Shown here piece by piece: positions 2,972-62,137 of a stretch of 64,000 nucleotides of DNA (positions within the stretch are counted from its first letter, which is position 1; the number at the start of each line of letters is the position of its first letter). This DNA is from Octopus vulgaris (lineage: Eukaryota). The notes under the pieces were generated by a model. The model did not search any database. It was not told the DNA's origin and saw only the letters and a program-made list of their open reading frames with translations. The stretch spans positions 114,142,001 to 114,206,000 of the forward strand of contig OX597821.1 of NCBI GenBank assembly GCA_951406725.2, read 5' to 3'. Position numbers and translations under genes: made by a program.

Positions 2972-3309
2972 TAATTAGTTTGGTTGACAAACTTGATTTA
3001 ATTGGTTAACAATGATATCAAAAATTAAATGACCAAAAATTTTTAATAGACTTTATAAATGTTTCTCTCCTTTATATAAAATATAGTTTTTTAACATGGT
3101 ATCGTCGAATCGATTGTATTGATTGGTTCCGCTGTCAAATTGGTAGTTTGTATTTCGACCAGAGGAACGGATGTTAAAGCCGATAAAAGAATTTATTTTC
3201 AAAACAATGAAATCACCAACAACAACGCCTTCCATATTTAATAACACGTCAACAAAGAAGCTTCTTCCTGGTGGCCTGACCTTCTAGAAATAGCAGCCAA
3301 ATCAATTAT

Positions 3310-3692
3310 ACATCTCCTGTTAGAGCATGCGTGTTCATAACACACGTGATTCATAAATGTAAGAAGATTTTGAGACACCGCGATGTTTCGACCTTATTGA
3401 ATGTCTCCTCAGTCGAAGCTATCTCTGGACCAATGAAACTAACAACGGAACAGGCTCTTATTAATAGACATGGGGAAATAAATTATTTGCTGATGCCTGC
3501 TGGTGTCTGCCAAACTTAAAATTCAGGTGTGAACGGAGCACAGTAAGAATTCGAACAATAACGTATCTAGCCATTCCAGGGATGAGTTTCACTGAAAAGA
3601 CATAAGTAAGGTCTAAACATCACGGTGTCTTAAAATCCACTTACATCAATCGATCACGAGTATTCTGAACAAACATCGCCTAAAAGGAGATG
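3310..3692. mobile_element. Old fold-back element (diverged inverted arms ~3310-3417 / 3587-3692), probable Penelope-like pLTR remnant
   Basis: Diverged inverted arms, each containing a hammerhead-like motif. Confidence 0.6.
3368..3417 (-). ncRNA. Minimal type-I hammerhead ribozyme, canonical core
   Basis: UUCGA-CUGAGGA-GAC(loop)GUC-GAAAC-AUCGCGGU-GUC-UCAAA. Confidence 0.75.
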
Positions 3693-3903
3693 TTCTCCAA
3701 TTTTAAAAAGAACAGCGACTAGCATATTCATGTTCGAATCTGCCAGAACTTATTGAGAATGAATAATTATATTAATTTTTTTCCTTAAAATGATTAAAGC
3801 ATCAAAGGTTTATCATAATTAAAATATGAACACAACACCGCTTGTTAAGCGGTAGTAGCAGACAAACACAGGCACAAAGGCAAACACACACACGCAGAGG
3901 CAC

Positions 3904-3978
<75 letters not shown>

Positions 3979-4000
3979 CATACATACATACATACATACA

Positions 4001-4031
<31 letters not shown>

Positions 4032-4418
4032 GAACGTCCGCAATAATGCTATGATACTTAACATAACATGAAAGCAATTTTAACTCATTAATTTTTTTCT
4101 TTAATTTTGTGCTGGCTAAACGTTGAAGATGTGAAAATTATGATTATTTAGGAGAGACACATGCAGTGTGCATCTTCTGCAGAATGTGTGTGGTCTCGTC
4201 TTGTATAGTTATCACTGTCCAATGTATGCCGTGAGTTTTATCAGTTGCAGACATGCTAGGGATTCTTCTAAATAAACATTACCAGAAAATTAGTAATAGA
4301 TGCACACAATTTTGTTTCATAATATACACACGAAAATATGTATGAACTACTTTATGCGTCTATATGTATATATATGTGTATCTACAAAATATATCAGGTA
4401 TGTATGTATGCATGCATG

Positions 4419-4462
<44 letters not shown>

Positions 4463-4501
4463 CATGCATGCATACATACATACCTGATATATTTTGTAGA
4501 T

Positions 4502-4547
<46 letters not shown>

Positions 4548-4671
4548 GTGTGTGTATGTGTTTGTGTGTCTGTCTGTCTGTCTATATATACGGACATATA
4601 TACACACACACAAATACATACATATATATGTATATATATATATATACACACATACATACAGACATACACAC

Positions 4672-4708
<37 letters not shown>

Positions 4709-4779
4709 TATATAGATAGATATAGATATAGATATAGATAAACATATATATATAACGCTTATATGTATATATATATATG

Positions 4780-4810
<31 letters not shown>

Positions 4811-4811
4811 G

Positions 4812-4865
<54 letters not shown>

Positions 4866-5271
4866 CATGATTTTTTATTTGTCTTAATGACTCGAGCCCT
4901 ACACGTATGAATAAATGGATGTATGGCAGTATCCATGTATATAAGTATAAACACACACTCACACACACACATGCGCGTGTGTGTATGTGTGTGTGTGTGT
5001 GAGTGCGTGTGCACACGCACATCTATTTTAATAGTCACTCATAATTAGCTCTACGTACAATATAAGCGCACGGCGTGTGCACAGTAAACCAGTAAGCCTA
5101 ATATTTTCCTTCAGCTAACAGTTCCGCCCAAGATAATTATCCCGATATTCGCCTTATTATAAATTTAACAAAATTTAAATACCAATTCTGACACAAATGT
5201 GCGAAACTTTTTTTTGTGTGTGTGACTATAACACAGACTAATCCATCACTTCCTGGTTAATATTTGCTCAC

Positions 5272-5272
5272 C

Positions 5273-5353
<81 letters not shown>

Positions 5354-5366
5354 GGTGGAGGTGGTG

Positions 5367-5419
<53 letters not shown>

Positions 5420-5434
5420 TGTGGTGGTGGTGGT

Positions 5435-5465
<31 letters not shown>

Positions 5466-5481
5466 GTGGTGGTGGTGGTGG
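5272..5481. repeat. Compound trinucleotide microsatellite (AGT)n(GGT)n(AGT)n(GGT)n(TGT)n(GGT)n
   Basis: Directly visible. Confidence 0.97.
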
Positions 5482-5694
5482 TTTCTTTTATTCAAGTGTC
5501 ATTTCATTTTTTTACTTCTCTTATATTTGTAATAGTTCTTTTGTTGGTAGGCGTATGGGTGGTTGTATGTCACCACTCCACTTCATAATTGTTATTCACG
5601 TACTTTGTTAATTAAACGAGTGATTATGTCATCAGTAAGCGTTGACGATATCCCCCATTCAACTATATTCTGTAGTGTAACTTAGATTGATTAT

Positions 5695-5860
5695 TTTACT
5701 AGATACGTCCCTCTTCATTAAATACGTGACGAAATATGCTGGTACTTCGACCTGTGTATTTCTCGCCCTTAAACAAGTAAGGAGATATTCTGGAATTTCG
5801 TGGTATGTATCTCCCATTATTAGATACGTGACGAAATATTCTGTTACCACGAGACGTGCA
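5695..5860. repeat. Degenerate ~60/120 bp tandem repeat (ATACGTGACGAAATAT core)
   Basis: Recurrent CATTA..ATACGTGACGAAATAT and AGATATTCTG words. Confidence 0.55.
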
Positions 5861-5906
5861 TTTCTTATCAAAAGATAATAGTACCTTGTATTCCTTCAGG
5901 TATATA

Positions 5907-7196
5907 CGAGGGACGTTCAATAAGTAATGCCTCTGACCCACTTGCACTTGTTTGATCTAGCTGAAATTTTGCATGTGCAATCATTTATATCTCTATAGAG
6001 TGAGTGGCAAATTACAGCTCTGAATTAATTGTGGTTTCTGATTTACAGGTGTTTGAACCAAGTCAAGTGTGAAATGGAGCCTGTTGAGTGTCGAGCAGTG
6101 ATCCGGTTTTTGCATTTGAAAGGACGCACACCACGGGAGACTTTTGATGAAATGAAAGTAACTTATGGTGATGATGCCCCATCATATGAACTTGTAAAAC
6201 TCTGGCATCGTGAATTCAAACATGGTCGGAACTCTGTGGAAACAGCTCCCAGATCTGGTCGCCCCTTCTGCCATTGATGAGGCATCTGTCCGTCAAGTTG
6301 AGGCTGCCATTTTGGAAGATCGACGCATAACTATTCGCCAAATAGCCCATGAGGTCAACATTAGTATCGGGTCTATAGAAACTATCATTCATGACCATTT
6401 GAATATGCAAAAGGTGTCTGCCAGATGGATTCCCAGGTTGCTCACGCCTTTCCAGAAGTAAGAACGGGTCGAGTGCTCGAGGGTGAATTTGGAGATGTGT
6501 CAAGAAGATGAGTCAAAATTTTTCAAAAGACTGATTACACAGGATGAAACCTGGGTCCATCACGATGATCCAGAGACCAAAGCCCAGTCAATGCAGTGGA
6601 AGCACCGTGACTCACCTCCTCCAAAGAAGGTAAGGATGCAGCCCTCCGCTGGTAAGGTCATGCTCACAGTCTTCTGGGACCAGGACGGAGTAGTGATGAC
6701 AGATTTCCTGGCAAAGGGTACCACAATTGCAGGAGCCTATTATGCTTCACTTTTGAGGAAATTAAGAGAAGCTATCAAAATCAAGAGGCGGAGCAAGATC
6801 AGCAAAGGCATCCTCCTCCTGCAGGACAACGCTCCGGTCCACAACTCGCTTGTCGCCAGATCAGAAGCACAGGCGTATGGCTATGAACTCCTCCCCCATC
6901 CCCCTACTCTCCTGACCTTGCACCCTCTGATTTTCACCTCTTCCCAGTCATGAAGTTGTTTTTGAAAGGAAAGCGTTTCCCAGATGATGCAGCCTTGATT
7001 TCTGAAGTCGCGTTCAGGTTGGAGGACCAAGCTGGGGTCTTCTACAAAAACGGTCTCCAGAGCTGCATCAAACAATGGGAGAAATGCGTAACTCTGGGTG
7101 GTTCCTATGTAGAAAAAGACTAATAACTGTGCCAAGTTTCGTTGCTCTACTGTTATGGGAAGTGGGTCAGAGGCATTACTTATTGAACGCCCCTCG
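5907..7196 (+). mobile_element. Full-length mariner (DD34D-type) element, 1290 bp
   Basis: TIRs CGAGGGACGTTCAATAAGTAATGCCTCTGACCCACTT / AAGTGGGTCAGAGGCATTACTTATTGAACGCCCCTCG, TA TSD. Confidence 0.96.
6074..7123 (+). pseudogene. Mariner transposase pseudogene
   Basis: MEPVECRAVIRFL, WIPRLL, TQDETWV, LQDNAPVH, PDLAPSDF motifs; frameshifts near 6265 and 6905, stop at 6459-6461. Confidence 0.93.
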
Positions 7197-11140: not shown

Positions 11141-11180
<40 letters not shown>

Positions 11181-11186
<6 letters not shown>

Positions 11187-11615
11187 AAACAAGTCAAAAT
11201 AGAAAATGCTAAAATAATTTTATAAAGAACATTTCAGTACCGGTTTCGGTCATTTTGAGACCTTTTCAACTGTAACGATTAAATAATTAAATTTAGAAAA
11301 ATTAAAAGAAAAGTTTTTTTAAAGGAATATTTGTATAGTGTTCAAATATAAGTGGCATTCTGCCTTTCTCTGTCTCCCTTGTTTGCACTTGTGTGTTCGA
11401 GGCCGTTGTGAATTCTTGGTAGGGTAGAAGAAGAAGAAGGTTGATGAGGAGAGGGCTGGAAAAGTTTGGGAGTGCCTTGATGGTCGTATTTTGAATGGTC
11501 AGTGGCGGCTAGCAGTTGCAGTTCAATTCAGGAGAATATTTCTATTGAAAGGTTTCTTTATGGAATTTGCGTAGGTGTTATACTAAAAAGCATTAGTGAT
11601 AAATCGACTAAAAAT
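11181..11615 (-). mobile_element. Penelope-like 3' fragment with U3-A8 hammerhead (11233-11275)
   Basis: Homologous to the arms of 61255-62137; UUACAG-UUGAAAA-GGUC..GACC-GAAAC-CG-GUA-CUGAAA. Confidence 0.75.
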
Positions 11616-31372: not shown

Positions 31373-32285
31373 CGTGGGCAATTATGGATGAATTTTAGGG
31401 CTTATAAATCTAATATTTTCCTATCCTTCCTTAATACCGGTTCCCATATGCTGTTCATATCTGCACTCGTTCTGCTTAGGAGGTTGTTGTGTCCTAGCAT
31501 ATGTGCTGCTTCTTTTAGTTTTCGTGTTTTCCAGTGGTGTTCTCTATTATTTTAACTTCATCCCACAGGGGGAAGCGGTCTCCGTTTTTCTATACATGAT
31601 CAGCTCTACCCGACTTATCTCCTCTTGCATGTTTGTTTTCCTTTTCTCTTCCCCACAACAATGTCAGGTTTCCAATGTCTAATCTGATGCTCACACTGAA
31701 CCATTGCCTCCCACAGAATTTTACAATCTTCATTCTCTGTAACTCCTTCTGGGATTTGTTCATATCACGTCTTTGAATCTTTCTAATCCATAATTTCCAC
31801 AGACCTCCCAATAGATCATTCTTCCGGCTTTACTTTCTGAGTTGAAATTCCGCTAAAGTTGACATGGCCTTTAATGTCTTTCGGTGATCGATAAAATAAG
31901 TATTGGTTGAGTAATGAGATCGATGTAATCGATTAGCTTCCAAGACCCCTAGCCCCACCCCACCATCCCACCAAAATTTCAGACCTTGCGCCAATTGTGG
32001 AAAGAAAAATTATTAAAGGGCTATGGACTTACAGAATCGTTAAAACGTCAGGAATATTCCTTCTGACATTTGCTCCGGCACTGTACGTTCTGAGTTCAAT
32101 CTCCACTGACGTCAACTCTGCCTTTCATCCCCTCATGGATCGATGAAGAGACTACCAGTTCACGTTCTGGGGTAGATATATTCGACTAATATCCTCTCCA
32201 CAAAATAGCTGGCCTTGTGCCGAAATCAGAAACCATTACAAAACGCCGAAGTGTCCGAAGACAGAAGATAAACTAAAGAATAATT

Positions 32286-32602
32286 GGAGTAAAGGTTGTT
32301 TGACAGCATAACATGGCAGTCCTGGTTTAGGACGAATGTTGCTGTAATTTAGCCCCAGGAGACATACGACACGATCTCTGTCCTTATATTTTTTGAACAA
32401 GGGAATCTAGCACTCCCACTCAGCTCAAAACAATATCTGTATATCGCGATTTCCGGGTTTTTTCCTTCATCAGCACCGAATAATTGTTCGGTTAGATCGT
32501 GTCGTATAGCCAGCTGGAGACGATGTCTCCTGGGGCTAATTTACAGCAACATTCGTCCTAAACTAGGACTGCCATGTTATGTTGGAAAACAACCTTTACT
32601 CC
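32286..32602. mobile_element. Fold-back element with hammerhead in the spacer
   Basis: Arms ~32286-32377 / 32507-32602; minus strand CGGUG-CUGAUGA-AGG(A6)CCCG-GAAAU-CGCG-AUA-UACAG at 32437-32478. Confidence 0.75.
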
Positions 32603-33435
32603 AAAGTACTCTTGCCGAATATCTCTTGTTGTGAGATTTTAAAATAGTAATTTTCTAAACAATAATTTTTACATTAGTTTCAAATTTTGGCGCAAGGCCA
32701 GCAATTTGGGAGGGGAGGGGCTAAGTCGAGTATATCAACCCGAGCATCCGACTTCTACTTATTTTATCGACCTCGAAAGCAAAAGGATGAACTCCGTCGT
32801 AACAACGGATGAAATATTGCTGTACATTTTGTCCGGCGACCTAACGATTCCACCAGTTCGCCGCCTTAGAGTGTTTCCATGTTCATCTCAATAATTAGCC
32901 TGGTCCTTATTTTGTCGAAATCTATTAATCAGTGGTAAAAGACGCAATTTGATGTATTTTAACTTATTTTGGTCGACGCACCGATTTACGCATTCAGCAA
33001 TAAGAAGTAAAAAAAAAAAGCATACTTTACGCTTAATGTCAAGTTTCGAAATACAGTGGAAAGAACGCCTGATTACCATGAGACATCACGTGACAATCAT
33101 TCTTGAGACTTATTTTTATAGTTTTTCTGGTGCGGGAGGTTGTTTTTTTGTTTTTTACATCAGCTTGATTTTAACAAAATTATATTTTACTTACTTAGAG
33201 GTGAATAAACGTTGCATTATGATAATTATTTTGTTTTTTATTTCGTTTATTATATTTTTTGGCAAATGAAAATGTGTAGAGCCGGCAGGTTTCCGGCGGA
33301 AATAGCATTATCTCTTTTGTTAGACTTGCACCATATCCAAGAACTATATAGAGAATGGATTGAGAGAAAACCTCAGATAAACGAAAAAAATATTTCGGAA
33401 GTGTGTACTTTAGTATTAAAGTCTATTTTTCTCAA

Positions 33436-40111: not shown

Positions 40112-40436
40112 AAGGAATTAAGTAGATAAGATCCTGGCTACATATGTTTCATAGCGAGCGGAACCTCAGAAATGGTAAATATCCAAGCGAGGTGTATAAT
40201 GCAGGCAACTCTTGAGGCCAAGGACACCTTGTTTAAAGGAAAGTTTACTTTGTCGCAAGGAGGTACATGTTAACACATGGAAGATTCAATCACATTCTGA
40301 TTGTTAACATGTACCTCCCTGCGACAATGTAAACTTTCTTTTAACCAAGATGTGCTTGGCCTGAAGAGCAGCCTGCTTTATACACCTCGCTTGCTATGAA
40401 AAATATGTAGCCAGAACCTTATCTACTTCATTCCTT
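40112..40436. mobile_element. Diverged fold-back element with hammerhead in the arms
   Basis: Inverted arms; UGGC-CUGAAGA-GCAGC...GCUAU-GAAA(A/C)-AUAU-GUA-GCCA at 40357-40413. Confidence 0.75.
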
Positions 40437-42668: not shown

Positions 42669-42730
<62 letters not shown>

Positions 42731-42942
42731 TTTATTTAAAGCAGCAGAAAATTCCACAAAACCTGTTACTCTGAGTTTCGCGTTGCCGTTCGTCGGACAG
42801 TTTTTGCTAGAAAAAACTGTCCGACGAACGGCAACGCGAAACTCGGAGTAACAGGTTTTGTGGAATTTTCTGCTGCTTTAAATAAAACATATTACTCTTC
42901 AACTAGTATTTGAGTACTCTTTTTTCCACCTTGTTTCACATT
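42731..42942. mobile_element. Fold-back hammerhead element adjacent to (TA)n
   Basis: Near-perfect 75-bp arms 42731-42805 / 42812-42886 plus tail; CUGU-CCGACGA-ACG(GCAA)CGC-GAAAC-UCGGA-GUA-ACAG at 42817-42854. Confidence 0.85.
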
Positions 42943-42944
42943 CC

Positions 42945-43143
42945 CCTGCTCAATTCAAGATCACAACATACATGTACACTGCAACATAATTTCTTTTCCT
43001 CAACAGGCCCTGCCCTATTCAACATTGTCCCGAGAGAGATCAAAAAGGAAAAGGATCCCATCAACTTTAAACAGAGTCTGGATATATTCCTTCAAAGTAT
43101 ACCAGATAAGCCACCCATAATTGGATACAACTCACCTAACAAG
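42945..43143 (+). mobile_element. CR1/L2-group LINE RT C-terminal fragment
   Basis: [29 protein letters not shown]. Confidence 0.75.
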
Positions 43144-43144
43144 A

Positions 43145-45224
<2,080 letters not shown>

Positions 45225-45509
45225 TTCGACAAACATTTGGTGTGTATTGTGATTACAGCTGTGATGCTTAGCTTGCAGTTTTCAGGAATCAGTAGACATT
45301 TTGTTGTTAAAGAAATAAGGGCAAAAAATAAAAGTTATATTCTATAACAGATACTATGGACGACGATTCAGTCAAATGGCGGGAACTTATATGTTGTCGA
45401 TAGTTTATGGCCAAGTCTAACACATTCACCGTTCAACAAACAAACATGTCTCACTTAAATATACATTATTGTTTCTCATTGTTTTAATCCGAACTGAAAA
45501 GACCTACAA

Positions 45510-51315: not shown

Positions 51316-51405
<90 letters not shown>

Positions 51406-51514
51406 ATATACATATATGTATGTATATATATATGTATATACATATATGTATGTATATATATATATATATATGCATACATATATGTATATATATATGTATA
51501 CATATATACATATG

Positions 51515-51558
<44 letters not shown>

Positions 51559-51560
<2 letters not shown>

Positions 51561-52287
51561 ACAACAATTGAGGAATGGTCTTAATAGGCCATTCGACCCA
51601 CTAGAAAGAGCAGCCAGGACTCAAACCGCCAAGTAGTAGTAATTCAGAAATTAAAGGAAAATTTTAAAACATTTACCCTAATTCATCTTTAGACAATGCA
51701 TTGTTTCGGTGTTTTTAATGGCAAACCAGCTTAATTAAATTAAATTAAGTCAATCCACCAAAGGCTACACCTCATCGGTAAAGAGGCCAGGAGAGACGGA
51801 TATACACGAGGCATCTGTATCTATGCCCTAGGAATATCTGCCCTAAAATCAGCAGTTTATATTTACTGCTGATAAGTTGGCGCGAGTACGATGGTTTTGA
51901 AAATTTTAGGGCAGATATTCCTAGGGCATAGATACAGATGCCTCGTGTATATCCGTCTCTCCTGGCTTCTTTACCGATGAGGTGTAGCCTTTGGTGGATT
52001 GACTTAATTTAATTTAATTAAGCTGGTTTGCCAATTAAAAACACCGAAACAATGCATTGTCTAAAGATGAATTAGGGTAAATGTTTTTAAATTTTCCTTT
52101 AATTTCTGAATTACTACTACTTGGCGGTTTGAGTCCTGGCTGCTCTTTCTAGTGGGTCGAATGGCCTATTAAGGCCATTCCTCAATTGTTGTTGAATTTA
52201 TATATATAGTCTTTGACTATTTTCTCTTTCTCACTAGACCGCTGGTGGCGATAAATTTCTATTGAATTTTTTCCTACCCTATATTGA

Positions 52288-52295
<8 letters not shown>
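51559..52295. mobile_element. Fold-back hammerhead element (~290-bp arms + ~100-bp tail) in (TA)n
   Basis: Arms 51559-51849 / 51903-52194 nearly identical; tail TAGACCGCTGGT...CTACCCT. Confidence 0.9.
51968..52067 (+). ncRNA. Type-I hammerhead ribozyme, U4C core (mirror copy 51686-51784, minus)
   Basis: UCUUUA-CCGAUGA-GGUGU...ACACC-GAAAC-AAUGCAUU-GUC-UAAAGA; 12-nt palindromic stem III; GUC triplet. Confidence 0.85.
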
Positions 52296-52321
<26 letters not shown>

Positions 52322-52357
<36 letters not shown>

Positions 52358-53090
52358 ATTTGGCTCAAAAGCAAATAGCAAGGCCATGTAGGGGGACATG
52401 GAGTTAAGTACAGGGTGGTGTTCATGTAAAGAGTTCAGGCCACTTGAGGTCCAGGGAGGCTTTGAACAAAGCGGTCGTCGGCATCTTCACCATCTCGTCT
52501 GGCAGCTTGTTCCACGGATCCGCAACCCGGACGGAGAAAGCTCCTCTCCTTCGATTGAGATGAAATCGTCGCAGGTAGAGCTTTTCGGAATGACCCCGCA
52601 GCCGACGCTCCGGAGCAGGAGTGAAGAACAGCTCTTTCGAGAGGTTACACTTCCCGCTTATGATGTTGTGGGCGAGAATGAGATCACCACGGCGGCGGCG
52701 TTTTTCAAGAGAATAAAGGTCGAGCGTCCTCAGCCTTTCTTCGTAGGACAAATTTTTGAGACCATGAACCATGCGGGTAGCCAGCTTCTGGACTCTTTCG
52801 AGATGCTGTATGTCTTTGAGGAGATAAGGAGAAGAGGCTTGAATCCCATACTCCAATATGGGTCTCACCAGCGTGACATAGAGTGGCAGGAATATGGCTG
52901 CTATGAGCATTCCGAATGACCGTCGAATCAAAAACAGAATTCCGCGCGCTTTGTTGGCAGCATGGACGCACTGGGCCGAAGGCGAAAAGGAGGAATCCAC
53001 CAAGATACCCAGGTCCTTTACCTGATCGGTCCTCTCCAGCAGCAGACGACCCGGCTCGAAATCAAGTTGAGTTGCAGGAGTAGAGCCGAC
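52322..53090 (-). mobile_element. 5'-truncated CR1 LINE with (TAAC)n tail
   Basis: Uninterrupted ORF 52422-53003: LYVTLVRPILEY, LERVQKLATRMV, YEERLRTLDLYSLEKRRRRGDLI, PWNKLP. Confidence 0.95.
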
Positions 53091-53094
53091 AGGC

Positions 53095-60350: not shown

Positions 60351-60672
60351 TTGCAGCGTGGAAGTTGTTTGTAAGCCATTTAAGAAACACACAAAAACCG
60401 TTACATTCACTTCAACATTTAAATTTAATTTGCCAAAATATTTTCATCGCTTTGAGACCGCGACCTGTTCACTGACAAAAATATCGTGCTAACAGGTCGC
60501 GGTCTCAAAGCGACGAAAATATTTTGACAAATTAAATTTAAATGTTGAAGTGAATCTAACGGTTTTTGTGTGTTTCTTAAATGGCTTATAAACACCTTCA
60601 ACGCTGCAACTGTTTTCGTTCCAGCACACGATCTCAGATCAAGTCACTTGCTATGCAAGTACATCTCTGTAA
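60351..60672. mobile_element. Fold-back element with G3-C8 hammerhead (60429-60479, minus)
   Basis: Arms ~60351-60469 / 60491-60609; UUUGUCA-GUGAACA-G-GUCGC..GCGAU-GAAAA-UA-UUU-UGGCAAA. Confidence 0.75.
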
Positions 60673-61171: not shown

Positions 61172-61232
<61 letters not shown>

Positions 61233-61254
61233 GTGAAAAGGAACACACGAGTTG

Positions 61255-62131
61255 ATATATATGAAAAAACAAGTCAAAAATAGAAAATGCTAAAATAATT
61301 TTATAGTGAACATTTCAGTACCGGTTTCGGTCATTTTGAGACCTTTTCAACTGTAACGATTAAATAATTAAATTTAGAAAAATTAGAAGAAAAGTTTTTT
61401 TAAAAGAATATTTCTATAGTAGTGTTCAGATTTAAGTGGCATTCTGCCTTTCTCTGACTCCCTTGTTTGCACTTGTGTGTCGGAGGTCGTTGTGAGTTCT
61501 TGGTAGGGTAGTAGAGGAAGAAGGCTGGTGAGGAAAGGGGGGTGGGAGAATCTGGGAGTGCCCTGATGATCGTATTTTGAATGGTCAGTGGCGGCTGGCA
61601 GTCTCAGTTCAATTCAGGAGAATATTTATATTGACAGGCTTGTTTATAGAATTAGCGTAGGTGTTATACTAAAAAACATTAGTGACAAAGTTAAGGGGTA
61701 GTTAAGGGTCACTAATGTTTTTTAGTATAACACCTACGCTAATTCTATAAACAAGCCTGTCAATATAAATATTCTCCTGAATTGAACTGAGACTGCCAGC
61801 CGCCACTGACCATTCAAAATACGACCATCAGAGCACTCCCAGATTCTCCCACCCCCTTTCCTCACCAGCCTTCTTCCTCTACTACCCTACCAAGAACTCA
61901 CAACGACCTCCGACACACAAGTGCAAACAAGGGAGTCAGAGAAAGGCAGAATGCCACTTAAATCTGAACACTACTATAGAAATATTCTTTTAAAAAAACT
62001 TTTCTTCTAATTTTTCTAAATTTAATTATTTAATCGTTACAGTTGAAAAGGTCTCAAAATGACCGAAACCGGTACTGAAATGTTCACTATAAAATTATTT
62101 TAGCATTTTCTATTTTTGACTTGTTTTTTCA

Positions 62132-62137
<6 letters not shown>
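61255..62137. mobile_element. Large fold-back Penelope-like element (~430-bp arms, ~20-bp spacer) with U3-A8 hammerheads
   Basis: Near-perfect arms; hammerheads at 61313-61356 (-) and 62037-62080 (+); ILLN*TETASRH remnant resembles PLE ORF C-terminus. Confidence 0.88.

Follow-up and report, generated by a model that had tools for sequence, protein, structure and literature searches.

The question raised by this locus is whether a near-perfect palindrome with a hammerhead ribozyme on each strand is an entity in its own right or the trace of another process. It lies in a stretch of 64,000 nucleotides of the Octopus vulgaris genome (contig OX597821.1, positions 114,142,001 to 114,206,000 of the forward strand), which is here called the window and from whose first letter all window positions are counted. 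The analysis identifies it as one insertion of a dispersed, non-coding repeat whose tandem unit is something other than the palindrome. Very probably, the locus is a single two-armed insertion into (TA)n of the non-LTR retrozyme kind, likely written in trans by a Penelope-like RT/GIY-YIG protein. A sequence-only reading had taken the palindrome as the thing itself; we infer instead that the palindrome and its outward-facing hammerheads are by-products of integration without a role of their own, and the 98-nt tail of one arm runs on to 52292.

Alignment of the inverted arms (51559-51849 on the minus strand and 51903-52194 on the plus strand; 291 and 292 nt) gives 288 identities, three substitutions and one indel, in accordance with the earlier description of arms of approximately 290 bp with few differences. 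Both outer ends of the two-armed insertion adjoin (TA)n (Table 1), and the locus as a whole amounts to 0.94 unit plus an inverted part. The hairpin formerly assigned to the spacer was recovered. The "spacer" itself proved to be 5' sequence of the right-hand copy, and the hairpin belongs to the regular unit and shows one compensatory change (A-U to G-C) in the 490-nt sister unit. A reading in which this hairpin forms the palindrome's real apex and one arm has suffered a deletion was rejected because the hairpin is native to the unit. The tail motif common to the whole superfamily represents a candidate enzyme-binding site. Adjoining the element, at 52422-53093 on the minus strand of the window, is the 3' fragment (223 aa) of an apparently unrelated LINE-type reverse transcriptase, which gave no Pfam match and which we take, by its motifs, to be CR1/L2-like.

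Table 1. Features of the two-armed insertion and its flanks, in positions of the window
Feature	Position	Strand	Remarks
Left target flank, (TA)n-rich microsatellite	51358..51558	.	
Left arm, inverted, 5'-truncated unit copy	51559..51849	-	spans -157 to +133 of the unit, counted from the cleavage site; ends outward at site A
Left-arm type I hammerhead fold	51686..51784	-	core CCGAUGA; predicted cleavage after C at 51692
Inversion junction	51847..51849	.	3 nt (AAT) compatible with both arms; overlap -3
Right arm	51847..52292	+	446 nt; spans -213 to +231 of the 474-nt unit, of which it makes up 0.94; ends outward at site B
9-bp hairpin, ATCAGCAGT..ACTGCTGAT	51848-51873	+	native to the unit; the spacer hairpin of the sequence-only reading
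Right-arm type I hammerhead fold	51968..52067	+	core CCGAUGA at 51974-51980; palindromic stem III at 52049-52060; cleavage predicted 3' of C 52061
98-nt tail between end sites A (52194) and B (52292)	52195..52292	+	on one arm only
Tail motif common to the whole superfamily	52232..52249	+	degenerate 18-mer
Right target flank, (AT)n, then (TTAG)n	52293..52321	.	

When the whole window was scanned for structure on both strands, the same hammerhead fold was found on each arm, on opposite strands, as had been proposed. Each arm harbors a 6-bp stem I (UCUUUA/UAAAGA) and a 5-bp stem II (GGUGU/ACACC), the latter closing a structured insert of 55 nt on the plus arm or 54 nt on the minus arm, together with the self-complementary 12-nt stem III, ACAAUGCAUUGU, C17 being located at 52061 (plus) and 51692 (minus). 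The three helices surround the core with helix I open, which is the type I arrangement, and the core positions C3, G5, A6, G8, A9, G12, A13 and A14, the pair A15.1-U16.1 and H17 are all present. Position 4 of the core, which the earlier reading had overlooked, is C and not U in both arms (CCGAUGA versus the canonical CUGAUGA). Across the family, C4 is found in 60 of 70 subfamily A arms and U4 in 32 of 40 subfamily B arms, the 490-nt sister subfamily being mostly canonical CUGAUGA. U4C is reported as a natural hammerhead variant with considerably lower activity in vitro that still allows viroid infectivity (PMC3088659). Since most arms of the subfamily whose copies are least diverged carry U4C, the variant has not blocked the spread of the element.

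That the hammerhead is not a chance pattern follows from the excess of stem III matches and from compensatory changes in all three stems. The 19-nt stem III pattern has 103 exact matches in the genome, as opposed to one with the reversed control, and the four stem III sequence variants are all self-complementary. Covariation was assessed in 21 rows, comprising 19 rows of the two subfamilies and two distant ones, hand-picked from 88 distinct hammerheads plus two distant copies; 98.3% of the cells were paired, and eight of the 17 pairs, including pairs of helices I, II and III, had changed on both sides. None of 500 shuffles, a control which ignores the relatedness of the rows, scored as high, and pairing dropped to 30 to 55% in slid controls. 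A search of the element against Rfam returned no hammerhead family up to an E value of 10, a miss whose likely cause is the long stem II insert, and yielded only repeat-driven miRNA matches below the gathering score.

Folding predictions with ViennaRNA suggest that a single hammerhead is mostly inactive, its core pairing with the 3' strand of stem III, such that the active fold is predicted for approximately 0.6% of monomers with C4 and 2.8% with U4. Two copies, in contrast, are predicted to cofold into a double hammerhead with a 12-bp stem III (-59.1 versus 2 x -23.7 kcal/mol), in agreement with the published hammerhead dimer model (PMC4209133). With the active form predicted for the dimer and misfolding for the monomer, a cleavage test on a single monomer could be falsely negative. 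The circular unit is also predicted to be a structured monomer RNA (z scores of -3.9 and -4.8, from 40 shuffles in each case).

Related copies that retain the fold, as anticipated earlier, are present in the form of family loci with covarying stems. Our search of the genome (2.8 Gb in 227 contigs) returned 52 matches from 40 scored candidates, which were 91 to 100% identical. The unit was defined at locus L007, where it is repeated head to tail with a length of 474 nt, and it was to this unit that the 446 nt of the right arm were aligned; at the family level, head-to-tail units which each bear a type I hammerhead occur at L007, L027 and L113. The unit has a GC content of 35.7%, no ORF of at least 130 aa is contained in the element, and no match to an RT plus GIY-YIG ORF was obtained in the window. 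The exact core pattern has 46 genomic matches, with two of 30 examined being due to chance, while the degenerate 18-mer of the tail motif, which sister families share, has 2371 exact matches versus none for its control. In the 474-nt subfamily, the longest arm reaches up to 2.15 units. Arrays of sister families, at C1:41005517-41008424 and C1:68702090-68705035, comprise a 3+3 palindromic array (units of ~490 nt) and a seven-unit run (488 nt). The argument that the template must be a circle because no longer array exists was judged weak, as it fits only the listed matches of this subfamily and sister families reach seven units.

The nature of the palindrome becomes apparent when loci are compared. 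The first 164 loci were reduced by hand to 114 distinct insertions, of which 111 match the unit; L039, L049 and L133, whose pattern matches were due to chance, were removed before counting. As the loci were found by hammerhead-centred searches, the sample is biased toward hammerhead-containing copies. Two arms with outward tails were found at 42 of the 111 loci, each with a different inversion point, and a single arm at the remaining 69. The outer ends fall at two fixed positions. Site A is at +133, counted from the cleavage site, although the TA target blurs it to +147; site B is at about +231. Two-armed copies almost invariably use one of each: A+B pairs account for 39 of 42, A+A and B+B pairs for none, and in three cases one arm ends elsewhere. 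Single arms, by comparison, end at A in 54 cases, at B in 12 and elsewhere in three. Either arm may carry the tail, and all 48 B ends listed run into (TA)-rich tracts. At the 42 junctions, for which BLAST ends are approximate, the arms overlap by 1 to 11 nt in 25 cases, abut in five and are separated by extra bases in 12. Two complete hammerheads are present in just 11 of the 42 two-armed loci. The cleavage site is crossed by 128 of 153 arms, a count inflated by the hammerhead-centred searches, and 5' ends are not enriched at that site (two of 153 arms start within 5 nt of it); such crossing fits a circle or an uncleaved multimer equally. Lineage variants are common to both arms of a locus (at L027, 16 are shared with one difference in 474 positions), and divergence within loci is about equal between tandem (1.8%) and inverted copies (1.3%; p=0.14), which fits one template per insertion. 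Gene conversion between arms gave no significant signal.

With regard to age, the arms differ at 3 of 279 sites (1.1%), compared with 91 of 5625 (1.6%) pooled over all two-armed loci, and among 73 arms the right one deviates least from the subfamily majority (0.2%). The arms of L147, L007 and L027 are as close as those described here or closer. The designation as a recent insertion is, in consequence, reasonable, the locus being young but typical rather than special. Contigs of runs X10 to X12 end at microsatellites and are uninformative on presence or absence.

It is proposed that such insertions would be generated as follows. A tandem copy would be transcribed, and two hammerheads of the transcript would pair via the self-complementary stem III and, by cleavage, release a monomer that probably becomes circular. 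A Penelope protein would then nick both strands of a (TA)n tract, with each nick priming cDNA synthesis at one internal site, A (+133) or B (+231). Both cDNAs would run back past the cleavage point, stop at random and be joined at a few matching bases, and two outward-facing hammerheads would arise whenever both arms are long enough.

The suggestion that the locus matters as a source of long dsRNA, which would silence the ribozyme and feed ADAR or Dicer, is compatible with this explanation, and we regard it as unlikely. Read-through RNA from either strand is indeed predicted to form one hairpin of approximately 290 bp (-563 and -547 kcal/mol), burying the ribozyme and containing just one hammerhead in sense, and 42 such loci would yield dsRNA against the family, if transcribed. 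The genomic copies display no A-to-G excess: sense-strand A>G changes amount to 6.0 per 1000, versus 9.1 for T>C, in subfamily A, and to 8.1 versus 8.3 in subfamily B. Editing has, therefore, left no bulk imprint in the reinserted copies, a statement that concerns genomic copies and not transcripts. The random arm length and centre further argue against selection on the hairpin. Contigs of runs X1 to X5, whose RNA origin is only guessed, cover family sequence and not the unique flank, and are indicative neither way.

The insertion footprint points to a helper of the Penelope type, and a Neptune-like Penelope element with such properties is present in the same genome. It encodes an RT/GIY-YIG protein with a CX4CxxC linker, targets (TA)n, and possesses a tail of approximately 41 nt (261 exact genomic matches) as well as a minimal hammerhead of its own (U3-A8 core, ACCGGU stem III), located 124 to 130 nt before its end A. 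The listed two-armed copies of this element likewise pair A with B, bar internal tandem matches and one intermediate end; as some second outer ends lie outside the examined stretch and some insertions are duplicated, no ratio is given. A 659-aa ORF matched Pfam RVT_1 only and no PDB sequence. Between the Neptune-like terminal repeat and the 474-nt unit there is no detectable homology (194 and 181 of 200 shuffles scored as high), a comparison made for one Penelope family in a genome that also contains fragments of others.

A more specific version of the proposed mechanism, which is possible and which we advance tentatively, holds that a single small circle of ribozyme RNA offers two fixed priming sites to a dimer of the Penelope protein, one for each nicked (TA)n strand. 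The retrozyme would be recognised by geometry and not by sequence, and the U4C hammerhead, active only as a dimer, would act as a switch that keeps the circle uncut. The geometry in question may be the position of end A, approximately 130 nt after the cleavage site in passenger and helper alike.

A closer relationship to Penelope would exist if the unit were the pseudo-LTR of an autonomous Penelope element and the locus the inverted 3' end of such an element after 5' truncation. Truncated Penelope copies have this architecture, Penelope ORF sequence lies directly 5' of the unit at L118 and L139, and the genome has several further Penelope families. The units, however, are consecutive with no ORF between them (to 2.15 per arm, and seven in a sister family), and a Penelope protein screen of the 164 loci produced matches at six, of which two abut the unit. 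Neither did any of 30 further superfamily loci give a Penelope protein match, and the 3' ends examined in other copies of the L118 ORF family lack the unit (no BLAST match in 29 of 29), which renders this origin very unlikely.

Three loci at which Penelope sequence and tandem units coincide may be described in their own right. At L118 (positions 3238-6172; C5, about 125.648-125.651 Mb), an ORF palindrome of the Neptune-like Penelope family passes at its 3' end, across a 5-nt match, into 1.25 units of the 490-nt retrozyme; Pfam gave nothing on the L118 fragments. The use of this locus as proof of a chimeric cDNA was downgraded, since the Penelope sequence by itself makes up a complete B+A palindrome and a later nested insertion is thus at least as likely as a template switch. 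A second direct junction, at L139, joins the unit with an older Penelope RT fragment. At L270 (positions 850-1990; C2, about 37.5436-37.5448 Mb), a 459-nt tandem consists of the 3' end, tail and ORF start of the Neptune-like element, and its two unit junctions are identical and start at the predicted cleavage site of the Neptune-like hammerhead. Although a single locus considered post hoc, L270 offers a hint of cleavage in vivo and of a circular template.

An origin at the DNA level, either as a MITE-like element bounded by long terminal inverted repeats or by fold-back duplication after insertion, is hardly credible and is already refuted in large part by the A+B pattern. Although the inverted arms are long, near perfect, present at both ends and marked by shared variants, and although true MITE-like palindromes occur in the window, the centre varies from locus to locus, 69 of 111 copies are one-armed, there are two different fixed ends and the tail may be on either arm, while fold-back of a finished insertion predicts equal ends. 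The invariant interior flanked by invariant terminal inverted repeats, by which a MITE is recognised, is lacking here, and the inverted 5'-truncated copy, one-end tail and microsatellite target that mark a Penelope passenger are all present.

The window contains further palindromes. One at 61230-62135 is also two-armed and situated in (TA)n, belongs to an unrelated family and has an extra tail of approximately 25 nt on one arm; each arm shows, by eye, a minimal hammerhead (UUGAAAA core, ACCGGU stem III, A17), and a one-armed relative is located at 11180-11603. Palindromes in which the scan detected no hammerhead motif (43141-45226, 60351-60609, 42725-42892, 40112-40436 and 32284-32604) comprise a 2.1-kb inverted duplication and several short MITE-like elements.

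Placed among known systems, the preferred reading of a retrozyme insertion finds ready parallels. Like the metazoan non-LTR retrozymes, the octopus family has a non-coding, low-GC (<45%) tandem unit that contains a single type I hammerhead (as described in PMC7229834), and it shares with them dispersed monomers, dimers and multimers and the proposed passage on Penelope-like elements. Units of 350 to 390 nt are given for mussel (PMC7229834) and of 51 to 972 in a 2026 survey, which describes retrozymes as non-autonomous Penelope sequences and reports that eight of nine Xenopus retrozyme dimers did not cleave (10.64898/2026.07.22.740005). The octopus family differs from the retrozymes characterized in these accounts in its 474- to 490-nt unit, its structured 55-nt stem II insert, its 12-nt palindromic stem III and its mostly U4C core. 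No homology to the one Penelope terminal repeat tested here was detected, in contrast to the homology reported for 24 of 57 Xenopus families (10.64898/2026.07.22.740005).

Penelope-like elements provide the second parallel. They are reported to carry dual hammerheads on opposite strands, 100 to 700 bp apart and with a dimer-type palindromic helix III (PMC4209133), and their insertions are described as an inverted 5'-truncated copy beside a sense copy, with a tail on one end (10.1101/2021.04.23.441226; PMC8557442). The octopus insertions share the inverted truncated copy, the one-end tail, the (TA)n target and the opposite-strand hammerheads with the elements of these reports (PMC4209133; 10.1101/2021.04.23.441226; PMC8557442), while the unit differs in having no RT/endonuclease ORF and a tail of 98 nt as opposed to 30 to 40. 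Relative to these descriptions of Penelope, the one-end-each pattern has been counted for the octopus unit (39 of 42).

The main text of an octopus repeat annotation (PMC13282606) contains no ribozyme, hammerhead or retrozyme, and in the papers searched we found neither cephalopod retrozymes nor the A+B pattern described previously, although preprint supplements may list such families. The locus itself is an ordinary copy and the family matters modestly, for how animal retrozymes re-enter the genome and how Penelope elements make inverted structures. For annotation, it serves as a warning that twin-ribozyme palindromes are integration by-products and not MITEs or regulatory hairpins.

A further counterpart is PAc, the Poseidon element of Anolis carolinensis, for which reverse transcription is reported to start at two adjacent internal sites that bound the tail, with an AT-rich target, both DNA strands cut and extended, and a protein dimer predicted (PMC11167929). 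Insertion of PAc needs no hammerhead cleavage, according to the same source (PMC11167929). The octopus template, known from genomic sequence alone, differs from PAc in being a non-coding passenger and resembles it in its two proposed internal start sites, and the near-strict one-end-each pattern, common to the autonomous element, provides a concrete prediction for priming in vitro.
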